Part shown: piece after piece, positions 7,527-52,797 of the stretch | Layout: each line of letters starts with the position of its first letter | How positions within the stretch are numbered: the stretch's first letter is position 1 | From: an uncultured Pseudomonadota bacterium | Lineage (GTDB): Bacteria > Pseudomonadota > Alphaproteobacteria > Acetobacterales > Acetobacteraceae | Assembly (NCBI GenBank): GCA_963736975.1 | Contig: CAVTQY010000002.1 | Location: 364,949-428,948 of the forward strand | Length of the DNA stretch: 64,000 nucleotides | Direction of reading: 5' to 3' | Made by a program: the position numbers and the translations under genes | The notes under the pieces: model-generated | Seen by the model: the letters and a program-made list of their open reading frames with translations, nothing else | Told to the model about the DNA's origin: nothing | The model's database searches: none

Positions 7527-7576
7527 AGAGCGTGATGCACGCTTTCCGACGTATCCGCCTCCAGCGATCACGCTCT
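7527..7576. repeat. REP-like element, module B only, copy 2
   Basis: AGAGCGTGATGCACGCTTTCCGACGTATCCGCCTCCAGCGATCACGCTCT. It fills the purF-SDR spacer, overlaps the purF stop (7575-7577) and ends 1 nt from the SDR start codon (7525-7523). Confidence 0.85.
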
Positions 7577-9074
7577 AATGCGAGTCGAGGAGGCTGAGCT
7601 GGCGCTCGACGTTGTCGCCCTGATCGGGCCGGGGAATCGGATAATCGCCGGTGAAACAAGCGTCGCAGTAATAGGGCCGCACCGGGTCGCGATCCTGCTT
7701 GCCGAGCGCGCGGTAGAGGCCGTCGAGCGAGATGAACGCCAGGCTGTCCGCGCCGATCTGCTCGGCCATTTCGTCGAGGGAGTAGCACGCCGCCAGCAGC
7801 TGGCCGCGCTCTGGGGTATCGATGCCGTAGAAGCAGGAATGCGTGGTGGGCGGCGAGGAGATGCGCATGTGCACCTCGCCGGCTCCCGCCTGGCGAACCA
7901 TCTCGACGATCTTGCGGCTGGTGGTGCCGCGCACGATCGAATCATCTACCAGCACGACGCGGCGGCCTTCGAGGATGGCGCGATTGGCGGAATGCTTGAG
8001 CTTCACGCCGAGGTTACGGATGTGCTCGGTCGGCTCGATAAAGGTGCGGCCGACATAATGGTTGCGGATGATGCCCAGCTCGAAAGGAATGCCGCTTTCC
8101 ACCGCATAACCCATGGCCGCCGGCACGCCGGAATCGGGCACCGGCACGATCACGTCGGCCGGCACGCCTGACTCGCGGGCCAGCTCCGCGCCGATGCGTT
8201 TGCGCGCATCGTAAACCGGCATGCCCTCCATCACGGAGTCCGGGCGGGCAAAGTAGATATATTCGAACACGCAGAACCGCTCGCGAGCCCGGGTGAACGG
8301 CTTGATGCTACGCACGCCCTGATCGTTGATCACCACGACCTCGCCGGGCTCCACGTCGCGCACGAACTCGGCGCCGACGATGTCGAGCGCGCAACTCTCG
8401 CTGGCCAGCACCCAACCGCCGGTGCCCTCGGAGCCGATCCGTCCCCCGTCGGCGGAGCCGACGATACGGCCAAGAATAAGCGGGCGGACGCCCAGCGGAT
8501 CGCGCACGCCCAGCAGCGCTTCATTGGATAGCGCGACCAGCGAATAGGCGCCGACCACCTGCTTGATCGCGTCGATCAGCCGGTCCGCGACCGTGGAATA
8601 AAGGCTGATCGCGATCAGGTGGATGAACACCTCGGAATCGGTGGTGGACTGAAACAGGCAGCCGCGCCGCACCAGGGACCGGCGCAGGATATGCGCGTTG
8701 GTCAGGTTGCCGTTATGTGCCACCGCGAGGCCGCCGAACTCGAAATCGGCGTAGAGCGGCTGCACGTTGCGCAGGACCGTCGCGCCGGTCGTCGCATAAC
8801 GGTTGTGGCCGATCGCGGACTGCCCCGGCAGGGAGGCGATCACCCGTGCATCGCCGAAATTGTCGCCGACCAGTCCCATGCCTTTGTGCGAGTGGAACCG
8901 CGCCCCGTCGAAACTGACGATCCCGCTCGCCTCCTGCCCGCGGTGCTGCAGGGCGTGCAGACCGAGTGCGGTCACTGCCGCCGCATCGGGCACGCTCCAG
9001 ATGCCGAAGACGCCGCACTCCTCGTGCGGCTTGTCATCGGTCAAATCGTCCGGTTCAGGCGACGCGGGTGGCAT
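7575..9074 (-). CDS. purF: Amidophosphoribosyltransferase
   Basis: ORF 7575..9221, start taken at M50 (9074, GGAGAG upstream). HEECGVFGIW...LQHRGQEASGIV...AIGHNRYATTG...DSGVPAAMGYA...VVLVDDSIVRGTTSRKIV. Confidence 0.95.
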   Translation of the reverse strand: MPPASPEPDDLTDDKPHEECGVFGIWSVPDAAAVTALGLHALQHRGQEASGIVSFDGARFHSHKGMGLVGDNFGDARVIASLPGQSAIGHNRYATTGATVLRNVQPLYADFEFGGLAVAHNGNLTNAHILRRSLVRRGCLFQSTTDSEVFIHLIAISLYSTVADRLIDAIKQVVGAYSLVALSNEALLGVRDPLGVRPLILGRIVGSADGGRIGSEGTGGWVLASESCALDIVGAEFVRDVEPGEVVVINDQGVRSIKPFTRARERFCVFEYIYFARPDSVMEGMPVYDARKRIGAELARESGVPADVIVPVPDSGVPAAMGYAVESGIPFELGIIRNHYVGRTFIEPTEHIRNLGVKLKHSANRAILEGRRVVLVDDSIVRGTTSRKIVEMVRQAGAGEVHMRISSPPTTHSCFYGIDTPERGQLLAACYSLDEMAEQIGADSLAFISLDGLYRALGKQDRDPVRPYYCDACFTGDYPIPRPDQGDNVERQLSLLDSH

Positions 9075-9667: not shown

Positions 9668-9786
9668 CAACTCGCCGCGGCACGATGCATGGGGTTTATC
9701 GGAGGGAGGGGTGCGGGCCAATCCCCATTCGGGACATAGGCTATACCGCCCGGGCAGTGCTTTCCCTATTACCTTCGGAGGTTGCA

Positions 9787-10395
9787 ATGCCGGAACCCGA
9801 ACGCATCGATCGGCATCGCACGGCACTCATCGCGTACGACGTCTGTCGGCGTGCGCTGACGCCGTCGGATCCCGCTCGAAGATCTGCAATGCGCCCGCTG
9901 CTCGATGCGTGGGTGCGGATGATCGCGCTCGCACGGGCGGCTGGTGTGCCGGTGATCTACACGACGCCGGTCAGCCGCGCCGATGGCGCCGATGTCGTCA
10001 TGCTGCCGACCGATCTATCGGCGGAGACCGGTGTGCCGCCGCTGACGAACGCGATCGAGGGGACCGCCGAGGCCGGTTTCCCCGAGGAGATTGCGCCTCG
10101 GGTTGAGGATTACGTCTTTCTCAAGCGTCGGCCGAGTGCCTTCTATGGGACGGGCGTTGCCGAGCTACTGCAAATGCTGCGGCGCAACACCCTTATCATC
10201 GGCGGTGGCGCCACCAACCGTGGCGTCGAGACGAGTGTCCGCGAGGCTTTCAATCTCGACGTTGCGTGTGTCGTCGTGCGCGAGTGCTGCTGGGGCAGTG
10301 ACGCGGACGCTCATGCGTATAGTCTGGACAAGGCGATGAAGATGTACGCTCGCATCCGGCGGCTGGAGCAAGTCGCGGAGATGCTGGGGGAGTGA
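9787..10395 (+). CDS. Isochorismatase-family cysteine hydrolase
   Basis: ORF 9685..10395, ATG 9787 preceded by GGAGG. ...RTALIAYDVCRR..., VFLKRRPSAFYGTGVAELLQMLRRNTLIIGGGATNRGVETSVREAFNLDVACVVVRECC. Confidence 0.85.
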   Translation: MPEPERIDRHRTALIAYDVCRRALTPSDPARRSAMRPLLDAWVRMIALARAAGVPVIYTTPVSRADGADVVMLPTDLSAETGVPPLTNAIEGTAEAGFPEEIAPRVEDYVFLKRRPSAFYGTGVAELLQMLRRNTLIIGGGATNRGVETSVREAFNLDVACVVVRECCWGSDADAHAYSLDKAMKMYARIRRLEQVAEMLGE

Positions 10396-10566
10396 GATGG
10401 CTGCTGGCCGAGGGCGGCAGTGCGGCGACAAACAGCGGCGGCCCGCGCCCATCATGGGGCGGCATAGGGTTAAGCAGTGGCCCTGCTCCTGATCCGATCC
10501 TGATTAACGACGTCTCAGCACGCGTGTGCTTCCCCTGGGGCGGCATCCCGAAGCGGAACCGCGCCA

Positions 10567-10828
10567 ATGCCGACGTTGAGCACGTTCTATGGTATCGGTG
10601 ATTCAGATGTTCTGGCAGGAACATCCGCCGCCGCACTTCCACGCCTTGTACGCGGAGCACGAGGCATTGATTGACATTCAGACGCTTGACGTCATCGAGG
10701 GAAGCCTGCCCCGCCGTACGCTTACTCTTGTGCGTGAGTGGGCGCGCGTACATCGTGCTGAACTGATGGAGGACTGGAATCTATGCCGGCAGAGGCAGCC
10801 GCCCAAGACGATCGAGCCGCTTCGGTAA
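10567..10828 (+). pseudogene. DUF4160-family gene interrupted by a +1 frameshift near nt 10597
   Basis: ATG 10567 encodes MPTLSTFYGI. After one extra G (~10597) the ORF-track frame (10589..10828) continues VIQMFWQEHPPPHFHALYAEHEALIDIQT... Joined, the sequence matches the canonical DUF4160 N-terminus (MPT.S.FYGI.I.M...EH.PPHFHA.Y.E). Confidence 0.6.
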
Positions 10829-11115
10829 CACCAACCATACGTCCGACTGCTCCGTGGCGGGTGCAGGAGGTGAAGGCGCTACCAGACGACCGCCTGTTCG
10901 TGCGGTTCATCGATGGGCTCAGGGGCATTGTCGATCTTTCCGCGCTCATTGCGTCGCCGAACGCGGGGGTATTCGCGCGCCTGCAGGACCGGAGCTTGTT
11001 CGAGCAGGTTCGGGTAGAAATGGGGGCCGTCGTCTGGCCCGGCGACCTGGATCTTGCCCCCGACGCGATGCACGCCGCGATCAAGAAACACGGGGAGTGG
11101 AGGATTGCTCCCTAG
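10783..11115 (+). CDS. DUF2442-family protein
   Basis: 110 aa. ...WRVQEVKALPDDRLFVRFIDGLRGIVDLSALI...GAVVWPGDLDLAPDAMH is the DUF2442 pattern. GGAGGA lies 9 nt upstream of the ATG. The gene overlaps the DUF4160 3' end by 46 nt. Confidence 0.65.
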   Translation: MPAEAAAQDDRAASVTPTIRPTAPWRVQEVKALPDDRLFVRFIDGLRGIVDLSALIASPNAGVFARLQDRSLFEQVRVEMGAVVWPGDLDLAPDAMHAAIKKHGEWRIAP

Positions 11116-11147
11116 TTAGCCGAGGTTGCGGCGCGGCCCCGTCATCT

Positions 11148-11350
11148 GGCAGCGCCGCCACCTATAGCGGTGTCGAGACGAGCGTGTGCGAGGCGTGCAA
11201 TCTCGACATTGCGTCTGTCGCCGTGAGCGATTTATGTTGCAGAGGCCACACGAACTACACCTACGGCCCCGACGAGGCGATGAAGACGCACGCGCGCATC
11301 CGGCGCCTGGACCAGGCCGCGGCGTGCTGGGGGAATGAGGGTGCTGCTGA
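11148..11350 (+). pseudogene. Diverged duplicate of the 3' end of the isochorismatase-family gene
   Basis: Nucleotides align by eye with 10201-10410. The translation ...GVETSVCEACNLDIASVAVSDLCC...DEAMKTHARIRRLDQAA compares with GVETSVREAFNLDVACVVVRECCW...DKAMKMYARIRRLEQVA. There is no upstream coding part. Confidence 0.7.
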
Positions 11351-11635
11351 TTGGTACAACGACTCGAGCCGCCAAGGTCGACCCCAAACGGTTCAATGCG
11401 CGCCGTCGGTTTTCGACCGTCCCCACCGTGATACACCATCAGCTCCGCCCGCGGTGCCAACGCGGCCATATCCGACCAGGACCATCGACATCGAAACTGT
11501 TGGACATTTGGGGATATCGGCCGAAAAATGTCGGTGCGTGCGGCCGCCGCGCGGCAATCAGCGGCCGCGCTTGACGGGCGCCGCGAATGTCGGCCCTGCC
11601 CGGCCGGCTGCTTCGAGAACGGCGCAGGAGGCGAT

Positions 11636-13290
11636 ATGGATTATCCTTACGACCTCGGCCCTTATTCCCGGACGGTGACCACGGCCTCGGCGGACGCCCA
11701 GCGCTGGTTCGACCGCGGCCTCAACTGGTGCTTCGGTTACCACCATGAGGAGGCGATCGCCTGCTTCCAGAAGGCGCTTGAGGCCGACCCGAACTGCGCC
11801 ATGGCGCACTGGGGCATCGGCTACGCGGCCGGGCCGAACTACAACTTCCCCTGGGAACTGATGGACCCCGCGGGTAAGGCGGTGGCACTCGCGCGCGCCC
11901 ACTCTGCCGCCTGCGCAGCCCTCGCGCTGGCCGGAGGTGCCACCGCGCCGGAACGGGCGCTGATCGGGGCGTTGACCACCCGCTATCCACAGCGCGACCC
12001 CATCGAAGACCAGTCGCCCTGGAACGACGCCTTCGCCGATGCCATGCGCCACGCACACCAAGCGTATCCAGACGACCTCGACTTACGCGCCATATTTGTT
12101 GAAGCGATCCTCAATCGTACGCCCTGGCTCATGTGGGACCTGCGTACCGGCGAGCCCGCGCCCGGCGCCGGCACGCTGGAAGCGCGCGAGGTGCTCGAGT
12201 GCGCCTTCCGCGATCTGCCCGGGGCGATGGACCACCCCGGTCTTCTGCACCTGCATGTGCACCTGATGGAAATGTCACCGCATCCGGAGGTTGCGTTGGT
12301 AACGGGTGACCGACTGCGCGAGATGAGCCCGGACATGGGCCACCTGGTTCACATGCCCACGCACATCGACATTCAGTGCGGCTACTATCGCGACGCGATG
12401 CACTGGAATCATAAAGCGATCGTTGCGGACCGCAAGTTCTATGACCTCGCCGGGCCGATGAATTTCTATTCGGGTACCGGATACATAATTACCATTTCGC
12501 CGCTTACGGGGCTATGTTCCTCGGCCAGTACGCGCCGGCGATCGCGGCCGTTGACGAGCTGATCGCGACCATGCCGGAAGCGTTTCTGCGCATTCCTTCA
12601 CCGCCCATGGCGGATTTTTTCGAAGGATACGTTTCCATCAGGCAGCACGTGCTGGTGCGCTTCGGCAAATGGCGCGAGATCATCGCGCAGGAGTTGCCGG
12701 CCGATCGCGAGCTGTTTTGCAACACCGTGGCGATGATGCACTACGCCAAGGGCGTCGCCCACGCCGCGCTGGGGGAGGTGCAAGCAGCGGAGGCGGAACA
12801 GGCGCTGTTCAGGGACGCCGCGAAACGCGTCCCGAAGTCGCGGCAAATCCACAACGTGTCCTGCGTGCAGCTTCTGGCTGTGGCCGAGGAGATGCTGGCG
12901 GGCGAGATCGCGTATCGGCGAGGCGAGCACGATGCGGCGTTCGCGCGTCTCCGCGCTGCCGTTTCGCTGGAGGATGATCTGCCGTACGACGAGCCGTGGG
13001 GGTGGATGCAGCCGGTCCGCCACGCGCTGGGTGCGCTGCTGCTGGAGCAGGGCCGCCCGGCGGAAGCCGAGGTGGTGTATCGCGAGGATCTTGGGCTTGG
13101 GGGCGCGTTGCCTCGGGCGCAGATCCACCCCGACAATCTGTGGGCTCTGCGCGGGCTGCTCGATTGCCTCGAGCGGCGGGGCGAGACGGCGGAGGCCGCA
13201 CTTATTCGCCAGCGGGTGAAGTTCGCGGCGGCGCGTGCAGATTTGCCGGTATGGGTGTCCTGTTTCTGTGCCGGCGGCATGGCGGCCTGA
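11636..13290 (+). pseudogene. TPR-like helical-repeat protein gene split by a -1 frameshift at ~12472-12475
   Basis: ORFs 11528..12562 (ATG 11636, GGAGG upstream) and 12514..13290 are two halves of one protein. The frame changes inside TCGGGTAC. Reading ...PMNFYS then, in the second frame, YRIHNYHFAAYGAMFLGQYAPAIAAVDE restores a continuous sequence. Confidence 0.65.
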
Positions 13291-13305
13291 GTTCGAGCCG
13301 GATTT

Positions 13306-13644
13306 TCAGATCGTAATGAAGCTCTCGAGCTTGGCGCGAACCTGCCGGGCCACTTCCGGGCTCACCGAACTACCAGCATAACGGATCGGCCTTGCCATTG
13401 TTCGATGCTGCGCACATGGCTGGTCAGAATTTCTCCCACGACCGGCAATCCGGGCGGCAGGACGACGCTGGTCGGAAATGGCCGTATGCGGGACGTAATC
13501 GGACACACCACCGAAAGCCCTGTATTCGCGCTGAACGCCGCGTCGGAGATGACCAGCGCTGGCCGTCGTCCGGCTTGCTCGCGTCCCTTCGTGGGGTCGA
13601 AATCGGTCCAGATCAGGTCCCCCGCCCGCTGGCATATAGCTCAT
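13306..13644 (-). pseudogene. mazF: MazF/PemK-type toxin gene whose core is out of frame (two opposite single-base indels)
   Basis: ATG 13644 overlaps the mazE stop (ATGA). Frame A encodes MSYMPAGG and the C-terminus ARPIRYAGSSVSPEVARQVRAKLESFITI. The canonical core DLIWTDFDPTKGREQAGRRPALVISDAAFSANTGLSVVCPITSRIRPFPTSVVLPPGLPVVGEILTSHVRSIEQW is readable only in another frame, between the C5 run at 13619-13623 and ~13392-13395. Confidence 0.7.
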
Positions 13645-13898
13645 TCGGGAACAATCTCGCGGCCAATATCCGGTCCCCAGTCGTAGGCTCCGGCATATTC
13701 GGCTCGCCAATCTTCGGGCGACTTACCGCGAAACAGCTCCGCGAGCGATATTCGCCTCTCGCTCGGGCGAATGACGACTGCCCCATCCCGCGCCTCGATA
13801 TCGACCCGTTCGCCATCGCGAAGCCTGACTGCATCGGCGATCTCCGCCGGCAGGCGCACCGCCAGGTTATTGCCCCATCTGCCGACCGTAACCTGCAT
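13641..13898 (-). CDS. mazE: AbrB/SpoVT-fold MazE-type antitoxin
   Basis: ORF 13641..13982, start at M29 (13898, GGAG upstream). MQVTVGRWGNNLAVRLPAEIADAVRLRDGERVDIEARDGAVVIRP. Confidence 0.75.
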   Translation of the reverse strand: MQVTVGRWGNNLAVRLPAEIADAVRLRDGERVDIEARDGAVVIRPSERRISLAELFRGKSPEDWRAEYAGAYDWGPDIGREIVPE

Positions 13899-13976
13899 CG
13901 AGCGCTCCAATGGATGGTCTGAGAATATCTGTGGCGCGGACGGCAACAGGCAAGGCCTACCCACCGGCACCCGCTT

Positions 13977-14191
13977 CCTCAAAACCCCCGCACCTGCTCA
14001 ATCGTCCGCGCCTTCAGCTCTGGCGGCTCCTTCCACGGAAACACCGTTACCTCCGCCCGCGGCGCCAATGCCGCCACATCGGTCGATGCCTGCAACGGAT
14101 GCGCTGGCGTATCGTCCGGCATTACCAGCACCGGCGTCTGGCAACCCCGCACGAACTCCCGCGACACGCCGCGGGGATTGATTGCACACAC
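13977..14191 (-). pseudogene. Diverged duplicate of the 3' end of the alpha/beta-hydrolase gene at 18456..19217
   Basis: ORF 13979..14191 translation matches 51 of 62 hand-aligned residues of the C-terminus of the intact hydrolase (VSREF.R.C.TP.LVMPDDTPAHPLQAS.DVAALAPRAEVT..PW..PPELKA.TIEQVR.F). Nucleotides 13977-14172 align with 18488-18683. Confidence 0.8.
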
Positions 14192-14276
14192 GAGCCGAGC
14201 GCCCGAAGCGCCACAGGATTATCTCGCAGGCATTGCGATCTGGTGTAGGATGCGCCGATCGGGGGGATAGAACTGC

Positions 14277-17200
14277 ATGGTTCAGTCCACGCTGCATCTC
14301 GAAGTTGCAGAGTTCCGCGATGCCGATCATTGGCGCTTTGTGCTGAAGGAGGCCGGCGGGGCGTTCCTGGCCGACCACGTCGCCGCGCTCGATCGGGCCG
14401 ATGCCCACTATGCCGCGCTAGTCGATCTGCCGGGCTATCTGCGCATGCATAGCGCACCGGATACCCGTGCGGCTGATGAGCAGCGGCTACTTGTTGAGGT
14501 AGGTAGTTGGATCGGCAAGCAAGTGTTGGGCCGGAGCCTTGCGGAGAAGCTGCTGTCGCGGGTGCCGCCGTCGGTGGTGGTGCGCGTGCTGGTCCCGCCG
14601 ACGGCAGAGCGGCTGCTCGCGTTGCCGCTCGAGATCGCACGGCTGGACGGCGGCGAGCCCCTGTCGGTGCAGGGCGTCAGCTTCGTGTTCGAGACGACCG
14701 GCACGGCGCCGCCACGAGCGGAGCCAGTCGGCGAGCGGCTGCGCATCCTGGCACTATTCAGCCTGCCGCCGGTCGGCAGCCCGCTGAATCTCCGCCGCGA
14801 GCGGCAGATGCTGCGTAATCTGGTACGCCGCTTGGCCGGCGCGGCCGGTCTTGGGGTGGAGTTGCACGTCCTGCAATACGGCGTGACGCGGAAGAGCCTG
14901 CAGGAGGTGCTGGAGCAGGGCGAGGGCTGGGACGTCATCCATTTCTCCGGCCATGGCCAGCCGGGCGCGCTGCTGCTGGAGCGCTCCGATGGCAAGCCGG
15001 ACGAGGTCTCCTCGATCGATCTCGCAAAGCTGCTCCGACAGGCGGGCGGACGGGTGAAACTGGTGACCTTGTCGGCCTGCCTGTCGGCAGCGGCCAGCGT
15101 CGCGCAGACGCTGTCCTGGCTTGGCTTCTCGGAGGGAGAGGCGGCGAAGCGCGACGCCTCGCCGGCTGTAACCACGGAAAAGCAGGACACCAAGGCGGCG
15201 CCGACGGTCGCGCGGGCGCTGACCGAAACGCTCGATTGCGCGGTACTGGCGATGCGCTACGCGGTCGAGGACGAGTTCGCGATGAACCTGGCGCGGGAAC
15301 TCTACGACCGGCTGTTCCGCCAGAAGCAGCCATTGCCGCAGGCGACAAGGCTGGCGCTTGCCAGTGTCGCTGGGGGCGAACGAGGAATCCCCGCCGTGGG
15401 TGCGCTCTCCGCCGCGGCGCCGGCGCTGTTCGGTCCACGTTCTGCGGACCTGATGCTCGTCCCGCCCAAGGGCACGGGGATCGACGCGGATACGTCGCTC
15501 GCTTTCGTGCCGAAGCTGCCGGAGCACTTTGTCGGCCGGGTGTCGGCGATGACGCGCGCGAGCGCGGCGCTCGCCACCGAGAGCAGCCGGAGCGGCGTTC
15601 TGTTCCACGGCATGGCGGGCGCCGGAAAGACCAGCTGTGCGGTCGAGCTCGTTTATCACCACGCCGCCGTTGGCCGGTTCCAGCGCTTTGTCTGGTTCTC
15701 GGCGCCGGAGCAGGGCAAGGACATCGCCCTGGCGCTGCGTGACTTCACACTGGCGCTGGAACGCCAGATCCCCGACCTGGCCATGCTGCAGGTCATCGAC
15801 CGCACCGACGCGTTGCGCGACTGGCTGCCACGGCTGGCTGAGGTGCTGGAGAACAACGCGCTCCTGATCGTGCTGGACAACCTGGAGAGCCTGCTGACCG
15901 AGGCGGGGGTATGGCGGGACGAGCGCTGGGGGTTGCTCGTCGAGGCCCTGCTGACCGCGGGCGGGCTGTCGCGCACGGTGCTGACCAGCCGCACCCGCCC
16001 TGCCGCGCTGCCGGAGTCGACCGAGGTAATCGCGGTGCACGCACTGCCGCGCGACGAGGCGCTGCTGTTGGTGCGCGAGCTGCGCAACCTGCGCCGGTTG
16101 CTCGACGGTGCGAAAGAGACCGGCGTGAGCCAGGAGGCGGGCCGGCAACTGGTGCGCCGGGTGCTGCGCCTGGTGCAAGGCCATCCCAAGCTGATCGAGC
16201 TGGCCGAGGCGCTGGCCGCGGCGCCGGCAAAACTGGCCGCGCAGCTCGACGAAGCCGACAAGGCGCAGACCGCGGGTGCCGGCGAACTCGACGCCTTCTT
16301 CGCCCAAGGCGAGACGCGACTCGGTCCGGCGGAATTTGTGGAGAGCCTGCATGGCTGGACCCGCGGCATCGCCGGCGCACTACCGGAGGCTGCACGCACC
16401 GGCTTCCATTTCCTTTGCGCCCTGGAGGAGGGTGACCGGCAGGGTTGGATCATCGCGGCCAACTGGTCGGACGTGTGGCAGCGCCTTGGCCGCCCGGCGC
16501 CGGCGCCGGATTTTCAAGCGGTGCTCGCCCCGCTCGTCGCGGCAGGGCTGGTCGACAAACAGGCGACCGCCGACCAGGCGGACGAGTTCGAAGTGCTGAT
16601 CCATCCTGGCATCGCCGAGGCCGGCCGCGCCGAGGCTGGCGCGGACCTGCAGGCCGCCGTCGATCACGAGCTCGCCGCGACGTGGAACACGCTGTTTCGG
16701 AACGCTTGGAAGGCGGAGGGCCGTGAGGCCTGGGCCGGCCCAATGATGGTGCGCGCCGGGCTGCACGGCTTCCCGTACTTCGCCCGCCTTGGGCACTGGG
16801 AGTTGGCTGCGGGAATGATGGACAGGGCCGTGCATCTGGACACATCGCCCGGTACGATCGCCGCAGTGCTGCCGCTGCTACAAAAGGTGGTCTCTGCCGC
16901 GACGGGCACCGAGCGGCAGAATGCGGAAAACCGCGGCATCCTCGCCAAGGTTCTCGAACTGGCCGGCCGGACCGGCGAGGCGGAAGGCCTGCTCCGCGAC
17001 CTCATCGCGCAAACTGCCGAGCGGGGTGAGTTTGGGGCCGCCTCTGTAAATTCAGGCACTTTGGCCAAACTGCTCCGGCGCACCGGTCGGGCGCGCGAAG
17101 CCTTACAAGTAATCGAGCGGCAGGCCGAATACACCAAGCAGGCAGGCTACGGGGCATGGACACAGTTAGCCGACGAGGTTCGGCGTCTGCAGATCCGCGT

Positions 17201-18071
17201 CGAGCTTGGCGAACATAGCGATGTGCTCGCGCGCGTGCTGGAGCTGCGCGGGCAGATGCACCAGTTGCCCGATCCGCCCGAGGCGAACGACCGGTCGGTG
17301 ACCACGTGGAATGTGCGTGAGACAATGTTGGATGTCGGGCGCAACGCTGCGGTGGAATCAGGTGAATGGCAGCCAGCCCTTGATCTCAACGCTGAGATTT
17401 TGCAGAGCAGCGTCAACCGCGGCGCCGGGGCTTTTGAACTTGCGCGTGGCCGGTTCAACGATTACGGGCCGCTACTGCGGCTGCAACGTTATGGTGAGGC
17501 CCGCAGCCTTTTGCAGCACTGCCGGGACGTGTTCGAGCAGGAGAACGCCGTGGCGGAGCTCGGGGCGGTGTTCTCTGGCCTTGCGGATCTAGAGGACGAG
17601 CTCGGCCGTAAAGAAGCGGCGGGGCGTTTCGAGCAAACGGCAATTCGCTACGAATATGCTGCGGGAAACCCCAGCAGTATCGCTATCAGCCACTTCAATC
17701 TCGCCAAATACCTGACCAAGGCGGATGGCGATTGGCGCGGCGCGCTCGGACATCGGCTGGCCGCGGCAATGATCAGATGCATCACCGGATCGGCGGGATT
17801 GGAGCAGGCGATCACGGCACTCGCCAGGGATCTTCGCAACGCCGGCGGCCAGGCGAGCGCGGCTCTGCCCGGCGATTTGGCCGCGCTGTATGCGGACGTG
17901 CAGCAAGTCGAAGGCGTGCGCTTCCACGAGTTGATGCAGCGACTGCAGCCGGACGAGGCGGCACTGGAACAGCTCCTGCAAGACATTATCGCCGGTGCGA
18001 AGAAACGGGCCGACGCAAATGACGGTGCATCGCCTGATCGCGGGCCACAGCAGGGGGAGGGGTCACAATGA
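14277..18071 (+). CDS. CHAT (caspase-like) protease - STAND P-loop NTPase - TPR-like repeat protein, 1264 aa
   Basis: The CHAT dyad context is WDVIHFSGHG (His226, nt 14952-14954) and KLVTLSACLS (Cys268, nt 15078-15080). Walker A is VLFHGMAGAGKTS (nt 15609-15632) and Walker B-like is NALLIVLDNLESLL (Asp534). The C-terminal ~450 aa are helical repeats. It is a single uninterrupted ORF with coding-like G/C third positions. Confidence 0.85.
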   Translation: MVQSTLHLEVAEFRDADHWRFVLKEAGGAFLADHVAALDRADAHYAALVDLPGYLRMHSAPDTRAADEQRLLVEVGSWIGKQVLGRSLAEKLLSRVPPSVVVRVLVPPTAERLLALPLEIARLDGGEPLSVQGVSFVFETTGTAPPRAEPVGERLRILALFSLPPVGSPLNLRRERQMLRNLVRRLAGAAGLGVELHVLQYGVTRKSLQEVLEQGEGWDVIHFSGHGQPGALLLERSDGKPDEVSSIDLAKLLRQAGGRVKLVTLSACLSAAASVAQTLSWLGFSEGEAAKRDASPAVTTEKQDTKAAPTVARALTETLDCAVLAMRYAVEDEFAMNLARELYDRLFRQKQPLPQATRLALASVAGGERGIPAVGALSAAAPALFGPRSADLMLVPPKGTGIDADTSLAFVPKLPEHFVGRVSAMTRASAALATESSRSGVLFHGMAGAGKTSCAVELVYHHAAVGRFQRFVWFSAPEQGKDIALALRDFTLALERQIPDLAMLQVIDRTDALRDWLPRLAEVLENNALLIVLDNLESLLTEAGVWRDERWGLLVEALLTAGGLSRTVLTSRTRPAALPESTEVIAVHALPRDEALLLVRELRNLRRLLDGAKETGVSQEAGRQLVRRVLRLVQGHPKLIELAEALAAAPAKLAAQLDEADKAQTAGAGELDAFFAQGETRLGPAEFVESLHGWTRGIAGALPEAARTGFHFLCALEEGDRQGWIIAANWSDVWQRLGRPAPAPDFQAVLAPLVAAGLVDKQATADQADEFEVLIHPGIAEAGRAEAGADLQAAVDHELAATWNTLFRNAWKAEGREAWAGPMMVRAGLHGFPYFARLGHWELAAGMMDRAVHLDTSPGTIAAVLPLLQKVVSAATGTERQNAENRGILAKVLELAGRTGEAEGLLRDLIAQTAERGEFGAASVNSGTLAKLLRRTGRAREALQVIERQAEYTKQAGYGAWTQLADEVRRLQIRVELGEHSDVLARVLELRGQMHQLPDPPEANDRSVTTWNVRETMLDVGRNAAVESGEWQPALDLNAEILQSSVNRGAGAFELARGRFNDYGPLLRLQRYGEARSLLQHCRDVFEQENAVAELGAVFSGLADLEDELGRKEAAGRFEQTAIRYEYAAGNPSSIAISHFNLAKYLTKADGDWRGALGHRLAAAMIRCITGSAGLEQAITALARDLRNAGGQASAALPGDLAALYADVQQVEGVRFHELMQRLQPDEAALEQLLQDIIAGAKKRADANDGASPDRGPQQGEGSQ

Positions 18072-18328
18072 ACCAACCCAACAGCAGCGAGGAGGTCGCA
18101 CGCAGGTCGGCGGCGCGGCTTGTCGATATCGATCCGGGATTACCGGATCAGGTTGAACAGGCGCTCGCGGAAGATCCGCTGTCCCGGCCAGCAGACCGCA
18201 TACTCGACCCGATTTCGCTGGGCGCGCTCATCGCCAGCATCGCCTCGCTGGGCTGGACCATATATCACGACATCAAGAAGGACCGCGGCACGGCCGGGCT
18301 CGATCGGGCGGGAAGACTCGGCGCCTGA
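18068..18328 (+). CDS. Small ORF translationally coupled to the CHAT-STAND gene (hypothetical, one hydrophobic helix)
   Basis: The ATG overlaps the upstream stop (ATGA at 18068-18071). The 86-aa product has an acidic N-half and one uncharged 19-residue stretch, PISLGALIASIASLGWTIY. Third-position G/C is high. A further open, coding-like stretch in another frame runs to 18450. Confidence 0.45.
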   Translation: MNQPNSSEEVARRSAARLVDIDPGLPDQVEQALAEDPLSRPADRILDPISLGALIASIASLGWTIYHDIKKDRGTAGLDRAGRLGA

Positions 18329-18455
18329 CCGAGCAGCTACAGGAATCGGATCTGGAGACCGGACCAGTTCCAACTGATCTTTCGCCAGAGCGGCACGCCC
18401 GGATGATCAGCGTCATTGCTGCGGAGATCGTTGGTTCCGACCCGGTCTAAAGCGC

Positions 18456-19217
18456 TTACCGGGCAACGGCTCTCACCGGCAGCTGCACCCTCAGAAACTC
18501 CCGCACCTGCTCGATCGTCTTGGCCTTCAACTCCGGCGGCTTGGTCCACGGATAGGCCGTCACCTCTGCGCGCGGCGCCAACGCCGCCACGTCCATCGAT
18601 GCCTGCAATGGATGCGCCGGGGTATCATCCGGCATCACCAGCATCGGTGTCTTGCAAGACCGCGCAAACTCCCGCGATACGCTGTAAACAAAATCGGGTC
18701 GTGCGCGGTAAAGATTGTGCAGATAGGCCTCGATCGTTACCATCGCAACATCTGGCCGTCGCGCCAGCAGTTCCGGCGCCCACACATCCCGGCCGGACCG
18801 GTACATCACGTCGGGATCGTCATCCCGATGCCCCACCGTCTGGCACAGCACGCCGGCCACCACGCGATCCGGCGCTCGCTCCATCAGCTTCAGCGCAAAG
18901 CAACCGCCGATGCAGTACCCCATGAAGAAGAACTGCCGGATGCCCAGGTGGTCCATCAGCCCGAGCTGATCATCGGTGAACGCGCCCCACGGGTCGTCAA
19001 CAGCGACAGGCCCCGTGGACTCGCCGCCGTTCGCGTTGCGCTGATCCATCGTGATGCAGCGGAAGTCGTCCTTGAAGACTTCCATCGCATTGAACACGGC
19101 GGTCGGCCAATGGCTGACGCCGGAGTTCAGGCCGCCGCCGGGAGTGACAAGCAGCGGGAAGCCGCTGCCGGTCTCCTCATAGCGGATGCGGACGTCGCCC
19201 TTTTCGTAGAATGGCAT
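18456..19217 (-). CDS. Alpha/beta-fold hydrolase
   Basis: 253 aa. MPFYEKGDVRIRYEETGSGFPLLVTPGGGLNS..., nucleophile-elbow-like FFMGYCIGGCFALK, and C-terminus ...PMLVMPDDTPAHP. Confidence 0.85.
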   Translation of the reverse strand: MPFYEKGDVRIRYEETGSGFPLLVTPGGGLNSGVSHWPTAVFNAMEVFKDDFRCITMDQRNANGGESTGPVAVDDPWGAFTDDQLGLMDHLGIRQFFFMGYCIGGCFALKLMERAPDRVVAGVLCQTVGHRDDDPDVMYRSGRDVWAPELLARRPDVAMVTIEAYLHNLYRARPDFVYSVSREFARSCKTPMLVMPDDTPAHPLQASMDVAALAPRAEVTAYPWTKPPELKAKTIEQVREFLRVQLPVRAVAR

Positions 19218-19304
19218 GGTGTATTTCCCAGGCTGCGGGTTGTGCGTTCTTTGTCATGGCTGGGCTCGGCCCGGCCGTCCACGTTTTCCTTCATGCGGGC
19301 AAGA

Positions 19305-19342
19305 AAGACGTGGATGGCCGGCACGAGGCCGGCCATGACGGT
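19305..19342. repeat. REP-type module left of the GIY-YIG gene
   Basis: AAGACGTGGATGGCCGGCACGAGGCCGGCCATGACGGT. An inverted partner CCGGCCGTCCACGT lies at 19271-19284, and the same motif recurs in reverse (TCCACGTCTT) at 19383-19392. Confidence 0.75.
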
Positions 19343-19422
19343 AAGTGCCGGCGTCCGCCTTCGCCGGGTTGAGGGCCAGCAGTCCACGTCTTCTTCACCA
19401 GTCCCGGCCATTGGGTGTTCGC

Positions 19423-19659
19423 ATGGGCGGATGGGTTTACATCATGACGAACCAGCGCAGTGGAACGCTGTATGTCGGGGTTACGAATGACCTGGTTCGT
19501 CGGGTTTGGGAGCATCGGCAGGGAATCGGAAGCAATTTTGTTCGTCGATATGCCCTGAACAGCTTGGTCTACTTCGAACATCATGAAGACGTAGGCACAG
19601 CAATTCAGCGAGAGACCAGTCTGAAGCGGTGGCCTCGTGCTTGGAAAGTCGCCTCTTGA
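19423..19659 (+). CDS. Small GIY-YIG nuclease-family protein (COG2827 type); conserved C-terminal tail is out of frame to 19709
   Basis: ORF 19345..19659, start at M27. MGGWVYIMTNQRSGTLYVGVTNDLVRRVWEHRQG...LVYFEHHEDVGTAIQRETSLKRWPRAWK. The expected tail QNPEWRDLYPSLLG* is encoded in another frame (19656-19709), implying an indel near 19650-19656. Confidence 0.7.
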   Translation: MGGWVYIMTNQRSGTLYVGVTNDLVRRVWEHRQGIGSNFVRRYALNSLVYFEHHEDVGTAIQRETSLKRWPRAWKVAS

Positions 19660-19740
19660 CTGCTCAGAACCCGGAGTGGCGGGACTTGTACCCGTCGCTG
19701 CTCGGTTGAAGTTCGATTTTGGTGTCATGTGTGCGGTTAA

Positions 19741-19821
19741 AAGACGTGGATGGCCGGGCCAAACCCGGCCATCCACGATAGGGGGCCGGCCACGACGATG
19801 AGGGCGGCCGGCCATGACGGT
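19741..19821. repeat. REP-type module right of the GIY-YIG gene
   Basis: AAGACGTGGATGGCCGGG-ccaaa-CCCGGCCATCCAC forms a 13-bp perfect stem (19746-19776) and is followed by GCGGCCGGCCATGACGGT (19804-19821). It is in the same orientation and has the same end motifs as 19305-19342. Confidence 0.75.
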
Positions 19822-19832
19822 GTACATCGTCC

Positions 19833-20708
19833 TTAATTCGCGGGGGCCAGCTTGTCCTGCGTCTTGGTTTCGAAATCGCCGGCCTCGTGGCGCTCGTGCA
19901 ACTGACTCGATGGGTCGCCGCTGGTGCGATTGACCATCCGCCCGCGCCGCACCGCCGGCCGTGCATGGATCGCATCGGCCCAGCGAATAACGTTCTTATA
20001 CTCCTGCACAGACAGGAACTCGGCGGCCCCGTACTGCCCGAACTTCACCAGCCCGGCGTACCAAGGCCATGCAGCCATATCGGCAATCGTATACACGTCA
20101 CCTGCAAGATACTCATTTTCCGCCAGCCGCTTATCGAGCACATCGAGCAGCCGCTTCGTCTCCATCGCAAACCGGTCGATGGCATATTCGATCTTCGTCG
20201 GCGCATAGGCGTAGAAATGACCAAATCCGCCGCCGAGATACGGCGCGCTGCCCATTTGCCAGAACAGCCATGACAGGCATTCGGCGCGTACAGCGACCTC
20301 GGTCGGCAGAAACGCCCCGAACTTCTCCGCCAGGTACAACAGGATCGCGCCGGACTCGAACAGCCGGATCGGCTTCGGACCGCTGCGGTCCACCAGCGCC
20401 GGGATTTTGGAATTGGGGCTGATCGCGACGAAGCCGCTGCCGAACTGATCGCCCTCGCCGATGCGGATCAGCCAAGCATCATACTCCGCGCCCGCATGCC
20501 CAAGCGCCAACAGCTCCTCCAGCATCACCGTGACCTTCACGCCGTTCGGTGTGCCCTGCGAGTAGAGCTGGAGAGGATGGCGCCCGACCGGCAGTTCTTT
20601 CTCGTGCGTGGGCCCGGAGATCGGGCGGTTGATGTTCGCGAACTGGCCGCCGCTTGGCTTGTTCCATGTCCAAACCTTCGGCGGCATATATTCGGATGAG
20701 TCCGACAT
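19833..20708 (-). CDS. yghU: YghU-type (Nu-class) glutathione S-transferase / GSH-dependent disulfide reductase
   Basis: 291 aa. YMPPKVWTWNKPSGGQFANINRPISGPTHEKELPVGRHPLQLYSQGTPNGVKVTVMLEELL... is near-diagnostic of YghU. Confidence 0.85.
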   Translation of the reverse strand: MSDSSEYMPPKVWTWNKPSGGQFANINRPISGPTHEKELPVGRHPLQLYSQGTPNGVKVTVMLEELLALGHAGAEYDAWLIRIGEGDQFGSGFVAISPNSKIPALVDRSGPKPIRLFESGAILLYLAEKFGAFLPTEVAVRAECLSWLFWQMGSAPYLGGGFGHFYAYAPTKIEYAIDRFAMETKRLLDVLDKRLAENEYLAGDVYTIADMAAWPWYAGLVKFGQYGAAEFLSVQEYKNVIRWADAIHARPAVRRGRMVNRTSGDPSSQLHERHEAGDFETKTQDKLAPAN

Positions 20709-20726
20709 CTTCCAAACTCCAACAGT

Positions 20727-50950: not shown

Positions 50951-51871
50951 ATGAAGCAGCTCTTGGCTGTGGCAGCGCTCGCGGCCTTGTTGAGCGCTGG
51001 TCCGATCGGTCAGGCGGGCGCCGAAATATCGGGGATGATCAACGCCGTCGGCGTGGAAAACGAATATGCCGACGTTATCGCGCAAATTGGCGGCAAGTAT
51101 GTGCAGATGACGGCGATTGAAACAGATCCCAACACCGATCCGCATACGTTCGAGGCCAGCCCGAAAGTCGCGGCACAGATCGCCTCCGCTGAGCTGATCG
51201 TGAAGAACGGAGTCGGCTACGACTCATGGGCAGACAAAATCATATCGGCTGCGCCAAAGGCCGATCGCAAAGTTATTGATGTCCAACAGTTGCTGGGAAT
51301 GCCCGACAGCACCCCGAACCCGCATCTGTGGTATGATCCGAAGACGATGCCGACCCTCGCGAAGGCCATCGCGGCCGACCTCTCCGCCCTGCAGCCGGTA
51401 AACGCCGCGTATTTCCAGGCGAACATGCAAAAATTCAACTCCTCGCTCCAACCCTGGACGGCGGCGATCGCATCCTTCAAAACGCAGTACGGGAACACAC
51501 TGATCGCGGTGACCGAGCCGGTCGCCGACTACCTGCTGGCGGCCATGGGGTTCAACATAGCCACCCCCTTGGGCCTGCAGGCCGCGATCATGAACGGCAC
51601 GGACCCTTCTCCTCAGGATGTCACGACACAGAACGACCTGTTCAAAAACCACAAGGTGAAGGTGTTCGCCTATAACCAGCAGGTCACAGATACCTTGACT
51701 CAGTCTTTCCTCGATCTGGCGAAGAAGAACGGGGTTCCGGTTGTCGGCGTGTATGAGACGATGCCGACGCCCGGCTACAACTACCAATCGTGGATGATGG
51801 CGGAGGTCGCCGCTCTTCGGAAGGCCGTCGCTGAAAAGGTGTCCACCGTGACGCTTGAGGCGGGACACTAG
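50951..51871 (+). CDS. Metal (Zn/Mn) ABC transporter substrate-binding protein, TroA/ZnuA family
   Basis: Signal MKQLLAVAALAALLSAGPIGQAGA, then ...VGVENEYADVIAQIGG..., DPHTFEASP, NPHLWYDP. Confidence 0.85.
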   Translation: MKQLLAVAALAALLSAGPIGQAGAEISGMINAVGVENEYADVIAQIGGKYVQMTAIETDPNTDPHTFEASPKVAAQIASAELIVKNGVGYDSWADKIISAAPKADRKVIDVQQLLGMPDSTPNPHLWYDPKTMPTLAKAIAADLSALQPVNAAYFQANMQKFNSSLQPWTAAIASFKTQYGNTLIAVTEPVADYLLAAMGFNIATPLGLQAAIMNGTDPSPQDVTTQNDLFKNHKVKVFAYNQQVTDTLTQSFLDLAKKNGVPVVGVYETMPTPGYNYQSWMMAEVAALRKAVAEKVSTVTLEAGH

Positions 51872-51971
51872 AGCATGATCGCTTCTGGCAGGCGAAGCGA
51901 TGATGCTCTAGCTCTTTGTTTAGAGCGTGATTCACGCGTTCCGACGTGTCCGCCTCAAGCGATCACGCTCT
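51870..51971. repeat. Two-module REP-like intergenic element, copy 3
   Basis: Module A is AGAGCATGATCGCTTC (51870-51885) / GAAGCGATGATGCTCT (51894-51909). Module B is AGAGCGTGATTCACGCGTTCCGACGTGTCCGCCTCAAGCGATCACGCTCT (51922-51971). It starts inside the stop codon of the SBP gene and ends 1 nt before ATG 51973. Confidence 0.85.
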
Positions 51972-51972
51972 A

Positions 51973-52797
51973 ATGCCCACGGGCGCCGGGAGCGAGGTCC
52001 TCGCTGTCCGTCAGGTGAGCGTCTCGCTTTCCGGACGCAGGATTCTACAGGACATGAATTTCGCGTTGGAGCCGGGCGAGTTCTGCGGTCTTATCGGCGC
52101 CAATGGATCGGGAAAAACGACGCTGCTGCGGACCATCCTTGGCTTCATCAAGCCCAGCCGCGGCAGCATCGCAATCGGGAGTGGCAGGCCGGCCTCGGTC
52201 GGCTACGTGCCGCAGAAGTTTACCCTCGATCCCTACATGCCGATGCGCGCGCGAGATCTTGTGGCACTCGGGTTCGATGGTCACCGGCTTGGCATTCCGC
52301 TTCCGTCGAGAGAGCGTGGGCGGAAGGTGGACGAGATGCTGGCTGCGGTCGAAGCGGCGGATTTCGCCGACCAGCGCATCGGGGCTTTATCCGGTGGGCA
52401 GCAACAGCGGGTGCTGATTGCGCACGCGCTGATCCGGCGTCCGCGCCTGCTTCTGTTGGACGAACCACTCGCCAACCTGGATATAAGAAGCATCGCCGCG
52501 ATCGTTGCGCTCTTGCGGCGCGTTTCCAGCGACTATCGGGTGACCGTCCTGCTCTCCGCCCATGACATGAACCCGCTGCTCGCGGCCATGGACCGGATCA
52601 TCTATCTGGCCAATGGGCGGGCTGCGAGCGGTCCTACCGACGACGTGGTTCGCACTGAGGTGCTGAGCAAGTTGTTCGGCTACCATATCGACGTCATCCG
52701 GGTTCATGGCCGGATCCTGGTGATCGCCGCCGACGCAGAGGACAGCATAGAAGCTGCGGTCGAGCGGCACCCCGAGCACGTGGCCCAGGTTCCATGA
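51973..52797 (+). CDS. Metal ABC transporter ATP-binding protein (TroB/ZnuC-like)
   Basis: ORF 51946..52797, ATG at M10. Walker A GANGSGKTTLL, signature LSGGQQQRV, Walker B LLLLDEP. Confidence 0.85.
   Translation: MPTGAGSEVLAVRQVSVSLSGRRILQDMNFALEPGEFCGLIGANGSGKTTLLRTILGFIKPSRGSIAIGSGRPASVGYVPQKFTLDPYMPMRARDLVALGFDGHRLGIPLPSRERGRKVDEMLAAVEAADFADQRIGALSGGQQQRVLIAHALIRRPRLLLLDEPLANLDIRSIAAIVALLRRVSSDYRVTVLLSAHDMNPLLAAMDRIIYLANGRAASGPTDDVVRTEVLSKLFGYHIDVIRVHGRILVIAADAEDSIEAAVERHPEHVAQVP

Follow-up and report, generated by a model that had tools for sequence, protein, structure and literature searches.

Sequential or C-terminal displacement of resident genes has been proposed for effector-immunity arrays of type VI secretion (T6SS) in Vibrio cholerae, and for Rhs and contact-dependent growth inhibition (CDI) loci, and has been attributed to homology-facilitated illegitimate recombination (PMC5361080; Jackson et al. 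2009 as cited there). Experimental cases of such recombination in Acinetobacter, Streptococcus pneumoniae, Pseudomonas stutzeri and Escherichia coli have been described (references in PMC5361080; PMC3240628). The element e14 and phage 21 integrate into icd of E. coli and leave the pseudogene icdC (PMC13626634 and references there). Genes of the DUF4160 and DUF2442 families are listed as the dhiTA type II toxin-antitoxin (TA) system of Dickeya dadantii (PMC8198452), and a pair on a Thermus plasmid enhances plasmid persistence and has been hypothesised to be a type II TA system (PMC12724237). Here we report on a stretch of 64,000 nucleotides (nt) of contig CAVTQY010000002.1 from an uncultured member of the Acetobacteraceae (the window), in which the 3' end of an isochorismatase-family gene (iso) is found on both sides of a DUF4160/DUF2442 cassette. 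An earlier note on this DNA had proposed that a recurrent, possibly shared, integrase-less mechanism inserts such small cassettes together with a replacement 3' end for the host gene. Our results confirm the repeat. It is one of at least four leftover gene ends in a hypervariable islet of TA and defence genes, and looks like the scar of repeated recombination there and not like a special cassette-insertion footprint. We see no new kind of system here; the scars are ordinary, though unusually legible.

A repeated gene end and the cassette it brackets

The repeat consists of copy A, the 3' part of the intact gene (iso_A), and copy B, a 5'-truncated piece comprising the last 73 codons of iso plus ~14 nt (Table 1). 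The two are 73-77% identical. When copy B was compared with the whole window by blastn, copy A was the sole match (74% over 212 nt, E 2.4e-30), and an nhmmer profile of 80 iso orthologs matched both the intact gene (9787-10401, E 1e-191) and copy B (11123-11352, corresponding to iso nt 388-623, E 1e-40). A likeness by chance was rejected at these values (2e-30 in blastn, 1e-40 in nhmmer). Three collinear blocks reported by a repeat finder (10201-10292 and 11148-11239, 77% identical; 10327-10378 and 11271-11322, 85%; 10382-10406 and 11325-11349, 84%) merge into a single repeat in the pairwise alignment, the check that the earlier note had suggested, and the nucleotide match is significant. The repeat starts at ~10174 in A and ~11123 in B, some 25 nt further 5' than had been noted, and ends 11-14 nt 3' of the stop codon. 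The peptides and the four conserved runs quoted at the time are all present in the alignment.

Relatives were collected in a scan of species-representative genomes and a scan of metagenome contigs, which together gave 160 loci with iso (referred to below by L numbers). The iso_A protein is 83-91% identical to its counterparts in these loci. Differences at codon positions 1, 2 and 3 were measured against the 80 orthologs and amount to 0.11, 0.065 and 0.40 for the 3' part of iso (copy A) and to 0.07, 0.05 and 0.40 for the 5' part of the intact gene; among the orthologs themselves the values are 0.09, 0.05 and 0.28. Judged by its codons, copy A thus shows a pattern typical of a gene under purifying selection. 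The values for copy B are 0.29, 0.16 and 0.31. Since its constrained positions are heavily changed and its third positions are ortholog-like, copy B is a fragment of an ortholog that has drifted for long without selection, by roughly 15% per site in our own estimate. Relative to A it carries indels of -2, -3 and -1 nt, no single open frame runs through it, and a Pfam search of its translation returned no match; protein identity to the orthologs is 46-59% for B and 78-95% for A.

Copy B shares 5/23 of the derived states of A, as many as are found in only 11/80 orthologs, and the orthologs with most of these states belong to a group linked to a hydrolase gene and a glutathione S-transferase (GST) gene (e.g. 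L001, L012 and L024). This suggests that B came from the same subgroup and not from a distant paralog. The idea that B is a piece of a distant functional paralog was rejected on three counts: third positions at the level of the orthologs (0.31 versus 0.28), degraded positions 1 and 2, and derived states of the hydrolase- and GST-linked subgroup. The 5' part of iso_A is nearest to L001 (0.887), as is its 3' part (0.856, tied with L018), so that copy A is not visibly foreign and the 3' end of the gene looks like that of an ordinary ortholog. In these respects the earlier note was right: a second copy of iso has left its displaced 3' end, without function, as B, and the intact gene has an ortholog-like end.

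Between A and B lie 713 nt. The DUF4160 and DUF2442 genes are there, as had been claimed, but they are not alone: a relic of 69 nt, derived from the 3' end of a gene for a short-chain dehydrogenase (SDR), shares the interval with them. The two small genes (Pfam PF13711, E 7.4e-21, and PF10387, E 3.4e-12) are adjacent and stand in the domain order of the DhiTA pair. At the nucleotide level the cassette is 83-94% identical to those of L007, L005, L051 and L094, with sharp ends common to all. Compared with L007, L005 and L051, the DUF4160 gene of the window has one extra base near 10597 that shifts the frame, which may be a sequencing error. The module is not stably maintained, because it is decayed or partial elsewhere: it has two internal deletions in L094, is reduced to a 3' stub of DUF4160 in L011 and survives as an orphaned DUF2442 gene in L008.

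The SDR relic was detected with a profile built on the terminal 160 nt of SDR from nine orthologs (nhmmer --max, 13-kb search), of which it is the only significant match (profile positions 83-158, E 2.4e-4). It occupies most of the 90 nt between the iso stop and the conserved part of the cassette and is contiguous with the cassette, a junction identical to that in L051, where SDR is intact, the cassette begins a few bases past the SDR stop and 64 nt separate the cassette from an intact iso downstream. An imperfect duplication of ~16 nt around the SDR stop flanks the cassette in L051 (5270-5300 and 5925-5950; GGCGGTGACACCACC and GGCGTGATGACCGCACC) and may be a target-site duplication. A repeat finder gave no inverted repeat flanking 10.4-11.1 kb of the window, and no transposase is encoded there. 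No integrase-like open reading frame (ORF), as of an integron, was seen in the region examined, in which no attC-specific search was made. A DNA-level search of a plasmid collection with the cassette and iso returned no match.

Hydrolase stubs and related loci

The earlier note had also claimed a second footprint of this kind within 8 kb. There is one, 3 kb away, at an alpha/beta-hydrolase gene (hyd) whose orthologs adjoin iso in about 20 loci: the 3' end of hyd recurs in a truncated fragment, F (18462-18682 and 13949-14169, 81% identical, blastn E 2.8e-55). What it surrounds, however, is not a small cassette but a 3.8-kb gene for a protein with CHAT protease and NB-ARC NTPase domains. The two footprints lie in one 9-kb stretch, nested around a tetratricopeptide-repeat (TPR) gene and a MazEF pair, and in a comparison of the window with itself the iso and hyd pairs were the only dispersed repeats of at least 70 nt, besides one leader-like repeat of 106 nt.

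Codon-position differences from the orthologs are 0.20/0.13/0.34 for F and 0.21/0.14/0.34 for intact hyd. The differences between F and hyd fall mainly at third positions, and decay in F is undetectable. On these grounds F and hyd appear to be two diverged functional alleles, of which F was cut short recently; an in-situ target-site duplication was rejected for this pair, as both copies are functional-looking, diverged alleles. The iso and hyd footprints consequently differ in age, because B is decayed and F is not. The acquisition of the CHAT/NB-ARC gene, which has no counterpart in the 160 related loci, likewise looks recent given the undecayed state of F. Its flanks (18060-18470 and 14165-14290) contain no relic and have no homolog in any sequence searched. 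An ORF of 86 amino acids (18068-18328), without a Pfam match, also lies between F and hyd.

A further, shorter hyd relic of 83 nt follows copy B (blastn E 6e-7 to F and 1e-4 to hyd), and the homologous spacer of L081 holds a 135-nt hyd relic (E 4e-18). The short relic is the remnant of a direct junction of convergent iso and hyd genes, as in L053. Import of the 3.07 kb from B to F as a single piece is unlikely in view of the decay of B and the undecayed state of F, except if the donor itself carried B as a relic. Across the islet, the window thus reads iso_A, SDR stub, DhiTA cassette, B, hyd relic, TPR gene, MazEF, F, CHAT/NB-ARC gene, hyd, a GIY-YIG ORF and GST.

Most of the 160 loci have unrelated iso flanks, but about 25 share a neighbourhood of SDR, iso, GST and hyd, whose order and orientation vary, with the GST>hyd> pair kept in all arrangements. 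L053 and L057 read SDR> iso> <hyd <GST (arrowheads give orientation), and L051 reads SDR> cassette> iso> TA <hyd <GST, with SDR and iso intact. The presence and absence of cargo was compared among relatives as the earlier note had recommended. L110 has an empty site, with 167 nt between iso and the TPR gene. L001 continues from iso with the TPR gene, HigBA and hyd, and L081 has other cargo (iso, a GmrSD-like gene and a second ORF, TPR, HigBA, hyd, GST). L094 has the cassette with its deletions but no B, followed by ~390 nt of DNA, TPR, decayed HigBA, ParDE, hyd and GST; its alignment to the window is continuous from iso through the SDR relic into the cassette (window positions 9763-10579, 84%). 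None of the 160 loci comes from the same organism as the window or exceeds ~91% amino acid identity, and exact-protein look-ups in public assemblies with iso (two start choices) and hyd found nothing on record.

The junction of iso with an SDR relic also occurs without the cassette, in L081 and L086. SDR nt 546-659 and 780-824 follow iso in L086, and the SDR that precedes iso in L081 and L094 is cut off at nt ~553. A second 3' fragment of iso is absent from all relatives. L008 (10485-12498) provides a further independent case of full gene, cargo and 3' stub: gene Y (96 amino acids) is complete at 12208-12498 on the minus strand, a DUF7946 gene lies at 11204-12043, and a 3' fragment of Y (10771-10998, 91% identical) is fused directly to the orphan DUF2442 gene. 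Taken together, the cargo types found in the islet are DhiTA, MazEF, HigBA, ParDE, GmrSD-like and CHAT/NB-ARC, and the interval between iso and hyd is a hot spot for the turnover of TA and defence-type genes. The HigBA pair, intact in L001 and L081, is a fused and internally deleted remnant beside an intact ParDE in L094 (13201-13473), a further sign of fast TA turnover at this site.

A palindromic element of ~101 nt (ends TGTCATTGCGAGG...CCTCGCAATGACA) stands on both sides of iso in three loci: L045 (5827-5927 and 6616-6715), L152 (1803-1902 and 2591-2690) and L157 (384-484 and 1173-1272). It resembles a miniature inverted-repeat transposable element or a repetitive extragenic palindromic (REP) sequence, and hints that iso is able to sit in repeat-bounded units.

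The TPR gene has intact orthologs of 551-560 amino acids after iso in L001, L081, L094 and L110. MazE was recognised by Pfam (MazE_antitoxin, E 5e-12). Its partner has a frameshift in a G run near the start (about 13640), and the three-frame translation of ~13362-13650 contains a PemK/MazF-like sequence. Single-base frameshifts thus split DUF4160 (10597), TPR (12465) and MazF, partly in homopolymers. They are probably sequencing errors, that is, indels of a long-read metagenome assembly, and not inactivation, because similar ORF splits occur elsewhere in the window; for the same reasons we rejected them as proof of pseudogenes. Same-strand overlapping ORF pairs of this sort lie at 36558-36992/36824-37960, 43396-44565/44381-46156 and 60523-61821/61773-62957.

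The block from iso to GST (9668-20721) is bordered by cvpA/purF on one side and radA/polA on the other. Since purF, cvpA and radA are all missing from the vicinity of iso in the 160 related loci, the block either has another position in the chromosome here or belongs to a set of several paralogous copies. The GIY-YIG ORF (19345-19659) is flanked by REP-like palindromes at 19290-19345 and 19740-19777 (AAAGACGTGGATGGCCGG...), and related copies occur between GST and hyd in L005, L007, L008, L011, L027 and L053. A hairpin-bearing sequence of 56-106 nt (GAGCGTGAT...ATCACGCTC) is present in three copies of 84-88% identity (2453-2562, 7528-7583 and 51869-51973), all at or near gene starts and without an Rfam match.

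Table 1. Positions in the window of the genes, repeat copies and relics of the islet.
Feature	Position	Strand	Basis
iso_A, intact isochorismatase-family gene, 202 amino acids	9787..10395	+	Pfam PF00857, E 3.8e-30
Copy A, iso nt 388-606 and ~14 nt beyond the stop	10174..10409	+	Alignments
SDR relic, degenerate last ~76 nt of the gene	10410..10478	+	nhmmer
Predicted DhiTA-type toxin-antitoxin cassette	10495..11123	+	Pfam and alignment to relatives
Parts of the cassette	~70-nt conserved leader; DUF4160 ATG 10567, ORF as called 10589-10828; DUF2442 end 11115		
Copy B, fragment of an iso pseudogene without its 5' part, from iso nt 388 to ~14 nt beyond the stop	11123..11352	+	nhmmer
Short hyd relic, 83 nt, hyd nt 616-698	11399..11481	-	nhmmer --max, E 8.4e-4
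TPR-repeat gene, interrupted by the loss of 1 nt near 12465	11634..13290	+	Pfam TPR
MazEF-type TA pair (MazE ~13641-13898, MazF ~13362-13650)	13362..13898	-	
Fragment F, 5'-truncated hyd 3' end, hyd nt ~536-746, ~225 nt	13960..14191	-	nhmmer E 1e-50
CHAT protease / NB-ARC NTPase / TPR protein gene, 1264 amino acids	14277..18071	+	Pfam PF12770, PF00931, TPR_12
hyd, intact alpha/beta-hydrolase gene	18456..19217	-	Pfam Abhydrolase_1; nhmmer E 2e-241
GST gene, conserved as the upstream partner of hyd and bordering the variable block on its outer side	19833..20708	-	Pfam GST_N, GST_C

Origin of the stubs

The stubs are probably the leftovers of redundant gene copies, produced by serial recombination between alternative arrangements of SDR, iso, hyd and GST. 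The relics themselves, the order and orientation in which they stand, the unequal extent of their decay and the presence of donor-like arrangements in relatives are plain to see. Every stub is a 3' part, and the gene from which it derives has an intact copy to whose islet side the stub lies, as would be expected if new DNA repeatedly entered from the conserved borders and ended inside the islet. The sequence of anchor, cargo, truncated older copy and older cargo is found at iso (A, cassette, B, TPR) and at hyd (hyd, CHAT gene, F, MazEF), and the same order of displacement recurs for SDR in L086, L081 and L094 and for gene Y in L008. Arrangements like those of the donors and recipients are available in L053 and L057 (SDR-iso), in L051 (SDR-cassette-iso), and in L094, L110, L081 and L001.

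According to this reading, DNA carrying another arrangement, from another strain or possibly from another copy in the same genome, would pair with the chromosome at a single conserved flanking gene, its homologous anchor. The opposite end would be joined illegitimately inside the islet, either by homology-facilitated illegitimate recombination or by unequal crossing-over and subsequent deletion. The outcome would be a functional flanking gene, followed by its accompanying cargo and then by the decaying, 5'-truncated rest of the other copy. At iso, an SDR-iso block like that of L053 would have become attached within the 3' end of SDR in an L051-like order of SDR, cassette and iso, leaving the SDR relic and creating the junction of iso and SDR stub common to the window, L094, L081 and L086. 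The redundant downstream iso would then have lost its first 387 nt, by deletion or in a second one-sided event, so that B remained after the cassette; in L094 it would have gone entirely, and in L081 it would have gone together with the cassette. Mirror versions may also be envisaged, in which an L094-like block entered an allele resembling L001 and was joined to it at iso nt 388, or an L001-like fragment entered from the TPR side.

Common to all versions is that a second iso allele left B behind, that the cassette was already present between SDR and iso, and that no cassette-specific insertion machinery is needed. The DhiTA cassette is a passenger and not the agent of the duplication. It is older than, and separable from, the duplication, because the iso/SDR-relic junction occurs without the cassette (L081 and L086) and the cassette without B (L094). 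For hyd and F an origin as different alleles is apparent (both show the pattern of purifying selection), whereas for A and B the allelic origin is hidden by decay. Which allele was resident and which incoming, in what order the events took place and by which recombination mechanism and enzymology are points that we infer.

However, this reading should be taken with some caution since a number of results weigh against it. Microhomology at the illegitimate joints is uninformative, with at most 1-2 ambiguous nt between cassette and B, and no recombination breakpoint was detectable within iso_A, although the segments are too short to expect one. No genome nearer than about 86-88% nt identity was found, so that there is no true pair of before and after, and the cassette/B and F junctions are present in this window only. 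The SDR and short hyd relics are weak matches (E 2e-4 and 8e-4 in restricted searches) that nhmmer missed with default filters on the full window and gave only with --max on restricted sequence. Finally, several orders of events (left anchor, right anchor, duplication and then deletion) lead to the same final structure and are not separable.

Two other accounts of the repeat deserve serious comparison, and we regard each of them as unlikely. A small mobile unit, made up of a replacement iso 3' end and the DUF4160/DUF2442 genes, could have inserted at iso nt ~388 and displaced the native 3' end, with the same happening at the hydrolase; it might have arrived in circular form through a single crossover of the Campbell type, or else by some integrase-less mechanism. 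The cassette does move, as its sharp common ends in at least three genomic contexts attest, B begins within ~3 nt of its conserved end, it is flanked in L051 by the imperfect ~16-nt duplication of the target, and the layout of full gene, cargo and displaced 3' end occurs twice in 9 kb and once more in L008. Yet the bracket includes an SDR relic contiguous with the cassette, exactly as in L051; the iso/SDR-relic junction is found in relatives lacking the cassette or lacking B; the cassette has inserted in L007, L005 and L051 without a long duplication; and the hyd footprint holds a gene of 3.8 kb between diverged alleles. The view of the earlier note that cassette and replacement 3' end form the insert of a shared integrase-less mechanism is not supported, given the SDR relic, the junctions in these relatives and the size of the gene at hyd. 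The note had itself named as a counter-explanation a longer duplication unrelated to the cassette, and this is borne out in part, as the unit that is repeated takes in some 3' sequence of SDR on the upstream side of the cassette. An internal tandem duplication from the SDR 3' part to iso, with the cassette already in the downstream copy and subsequent deletion of the 5' part of the downstream iso, would call for no foreign DNA. The new junction that it should create, with SDR 3' sequence directly behind iso stop+14, is the one observed; the recurrent SDR ends near nt 550 in L086, L081 and L094 suggest where the repeat unit may have started; and iso is multi-copy in at least one metagenome-assembled genome (L003 and L060, same bin). 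Against such a duplication, the 5/23 derived states shared by A and B compare with 9/24 for L001, so that A and B are no nearer to each other than to genes of other species; the hyd pair consists of different alleles under purifying selection, and at least that event therefore involved diverged DNA; and no relative has two intact tandem iso genes.

Still less credit can be given to two further explanations, both of which we consider very improbable. A site-specific integrative element in the iso 3' end, of the type of e14 or phage 21 in icd, whose integrase and most other parts were later deleted, would produce a layout like icd, e14 and icdC, with a reconstituted gene and a displaced C-terminal pseudogene (PMC13626634). 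But the ORFs between the repeats and in 9.7-20.7 kb fall into other families or lack a Pfam match, and the stretch from cvpA to radA contains no recombinase, phage or conjugation gene; scans for tRNAs and Rfam families found none near the region. The longest exact match of A and B is 11 nt, inside conserved codons, and there is no att-like core at the edges of the repeat, although decay with age could erase one. Such an element would also leave the SDR relic unexplained, and several different genes of the islet have stubs. That the contig artificially joins two co-occurring strain or species variants of the locus is conceivable given the single-base frameshifts in conserved genes (DUF4160, TPR, MazF and the other ORF pairs), which point to an error-prone long-read metagenome assembly, and given that the cassette/B and F junctions are unique to the window. 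However, B is a decayed pseudogene and not a functional variant, the copies are only 74-81% identical and hence too diverged to confuse an assembler, the iso/SDR-relic and SDR-relic/cassette junctions recur in independent assemblies, and a hyd relic occurs independently in the same spacer of L081.

Serial recombination between alternative arrangements thus remains the account we favor, and under it the region is a layered record of the rebuilding of a TA and defence islet in uncultured soil bacteria resembling Acetobacteraceae or Stellaceae. The stubs serve as a stratigraphy: an old iso stub and a hyd relic on one side, and a fresh hyd stub beside the CHAT/NB-ARC gene on the other, make the order of acquisition readable. 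A bolder idea, slighter in probability than the mobile unit or the tandem duplication, is that accessory islets in this lineage grow mainly by the strongly biased addition of a border-gene copy plus cargo, with the old 3' end pushed inward, a process that might be driven by a specific route such as fragments of gene-transfer-agent size and end joining. It would be the displacement of the Rhs and T6SS toxin arrays at work on ordinary metabolic genes, with TA and defence genes as what is delivered. If so, the six stubs in the neighbourhood (SDR, iso, hyd twice, Y in L008 and DUF4160 in L011) would be a signature and not an accident. Whatever the process, our results call for caution insofar as short duplicates of gene 3' ends around small modules need not be the ends of mobile elements, and relatives should be compared before an insertion mechanism is deduced.

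Comparison with described systems

The cassette resembles described DhiTA modules (PMC8198452; PMC12724237) in consisting of two small adjacent genes with the same Pfam domains in the same order. It differs from them in the 1-nt frameshift of DUF4160 in the window and in the visible decay of the module in L094, and its role as a toxin-antitoxin system in these bacteria is a prediction from domain content.

With e14 in icd, the iso locus has in common a full gene with a substituted 3' end, inserted DNA and a displaced, diverged 3' fragment. The resemblance ends there, since e14 measures 15 kb, encodes an integrase and has a defined att core, whereas the DNA enclosed here measures 0.7 kb (4.3 kb at hyd) and has neither recombinase nor core. 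There is also a likeness to homology-facilitated illegitimate recombination as studied experimentally, in which one homologous and one illegitimate end bring foreign cargo to lie beside a conserved gene, and sequence near the joint is duplicated or deleted. The microhomology typical of such joints is not demonstrable in our case, however, which is known from sequence alone.

The model proposed for the loci of T6SS effectors, Rhs and CDI corresponds to our reading. There, as here, entry takes place via a conserved anchor gene, the resident 3' part and the genes downstream of it are pushed inward, repeated rounds lead to strings of orphaned 3' fragments, and no integrase takes part. The anchors of the islet, in contrast, are metabolic-type genes (SDR, isochorismatase-family, alpha/beta hydrolase) and not toxin genes, its stubs, in contrast to orphan immunity genes or toxin tips, have kept no function that seems plausible, and displacement has proceeded from both of its borders. 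The stubs suggest that displacement, so far discussed for polymorphic-toxin loci, also shapes ordinary defence and TA islets.

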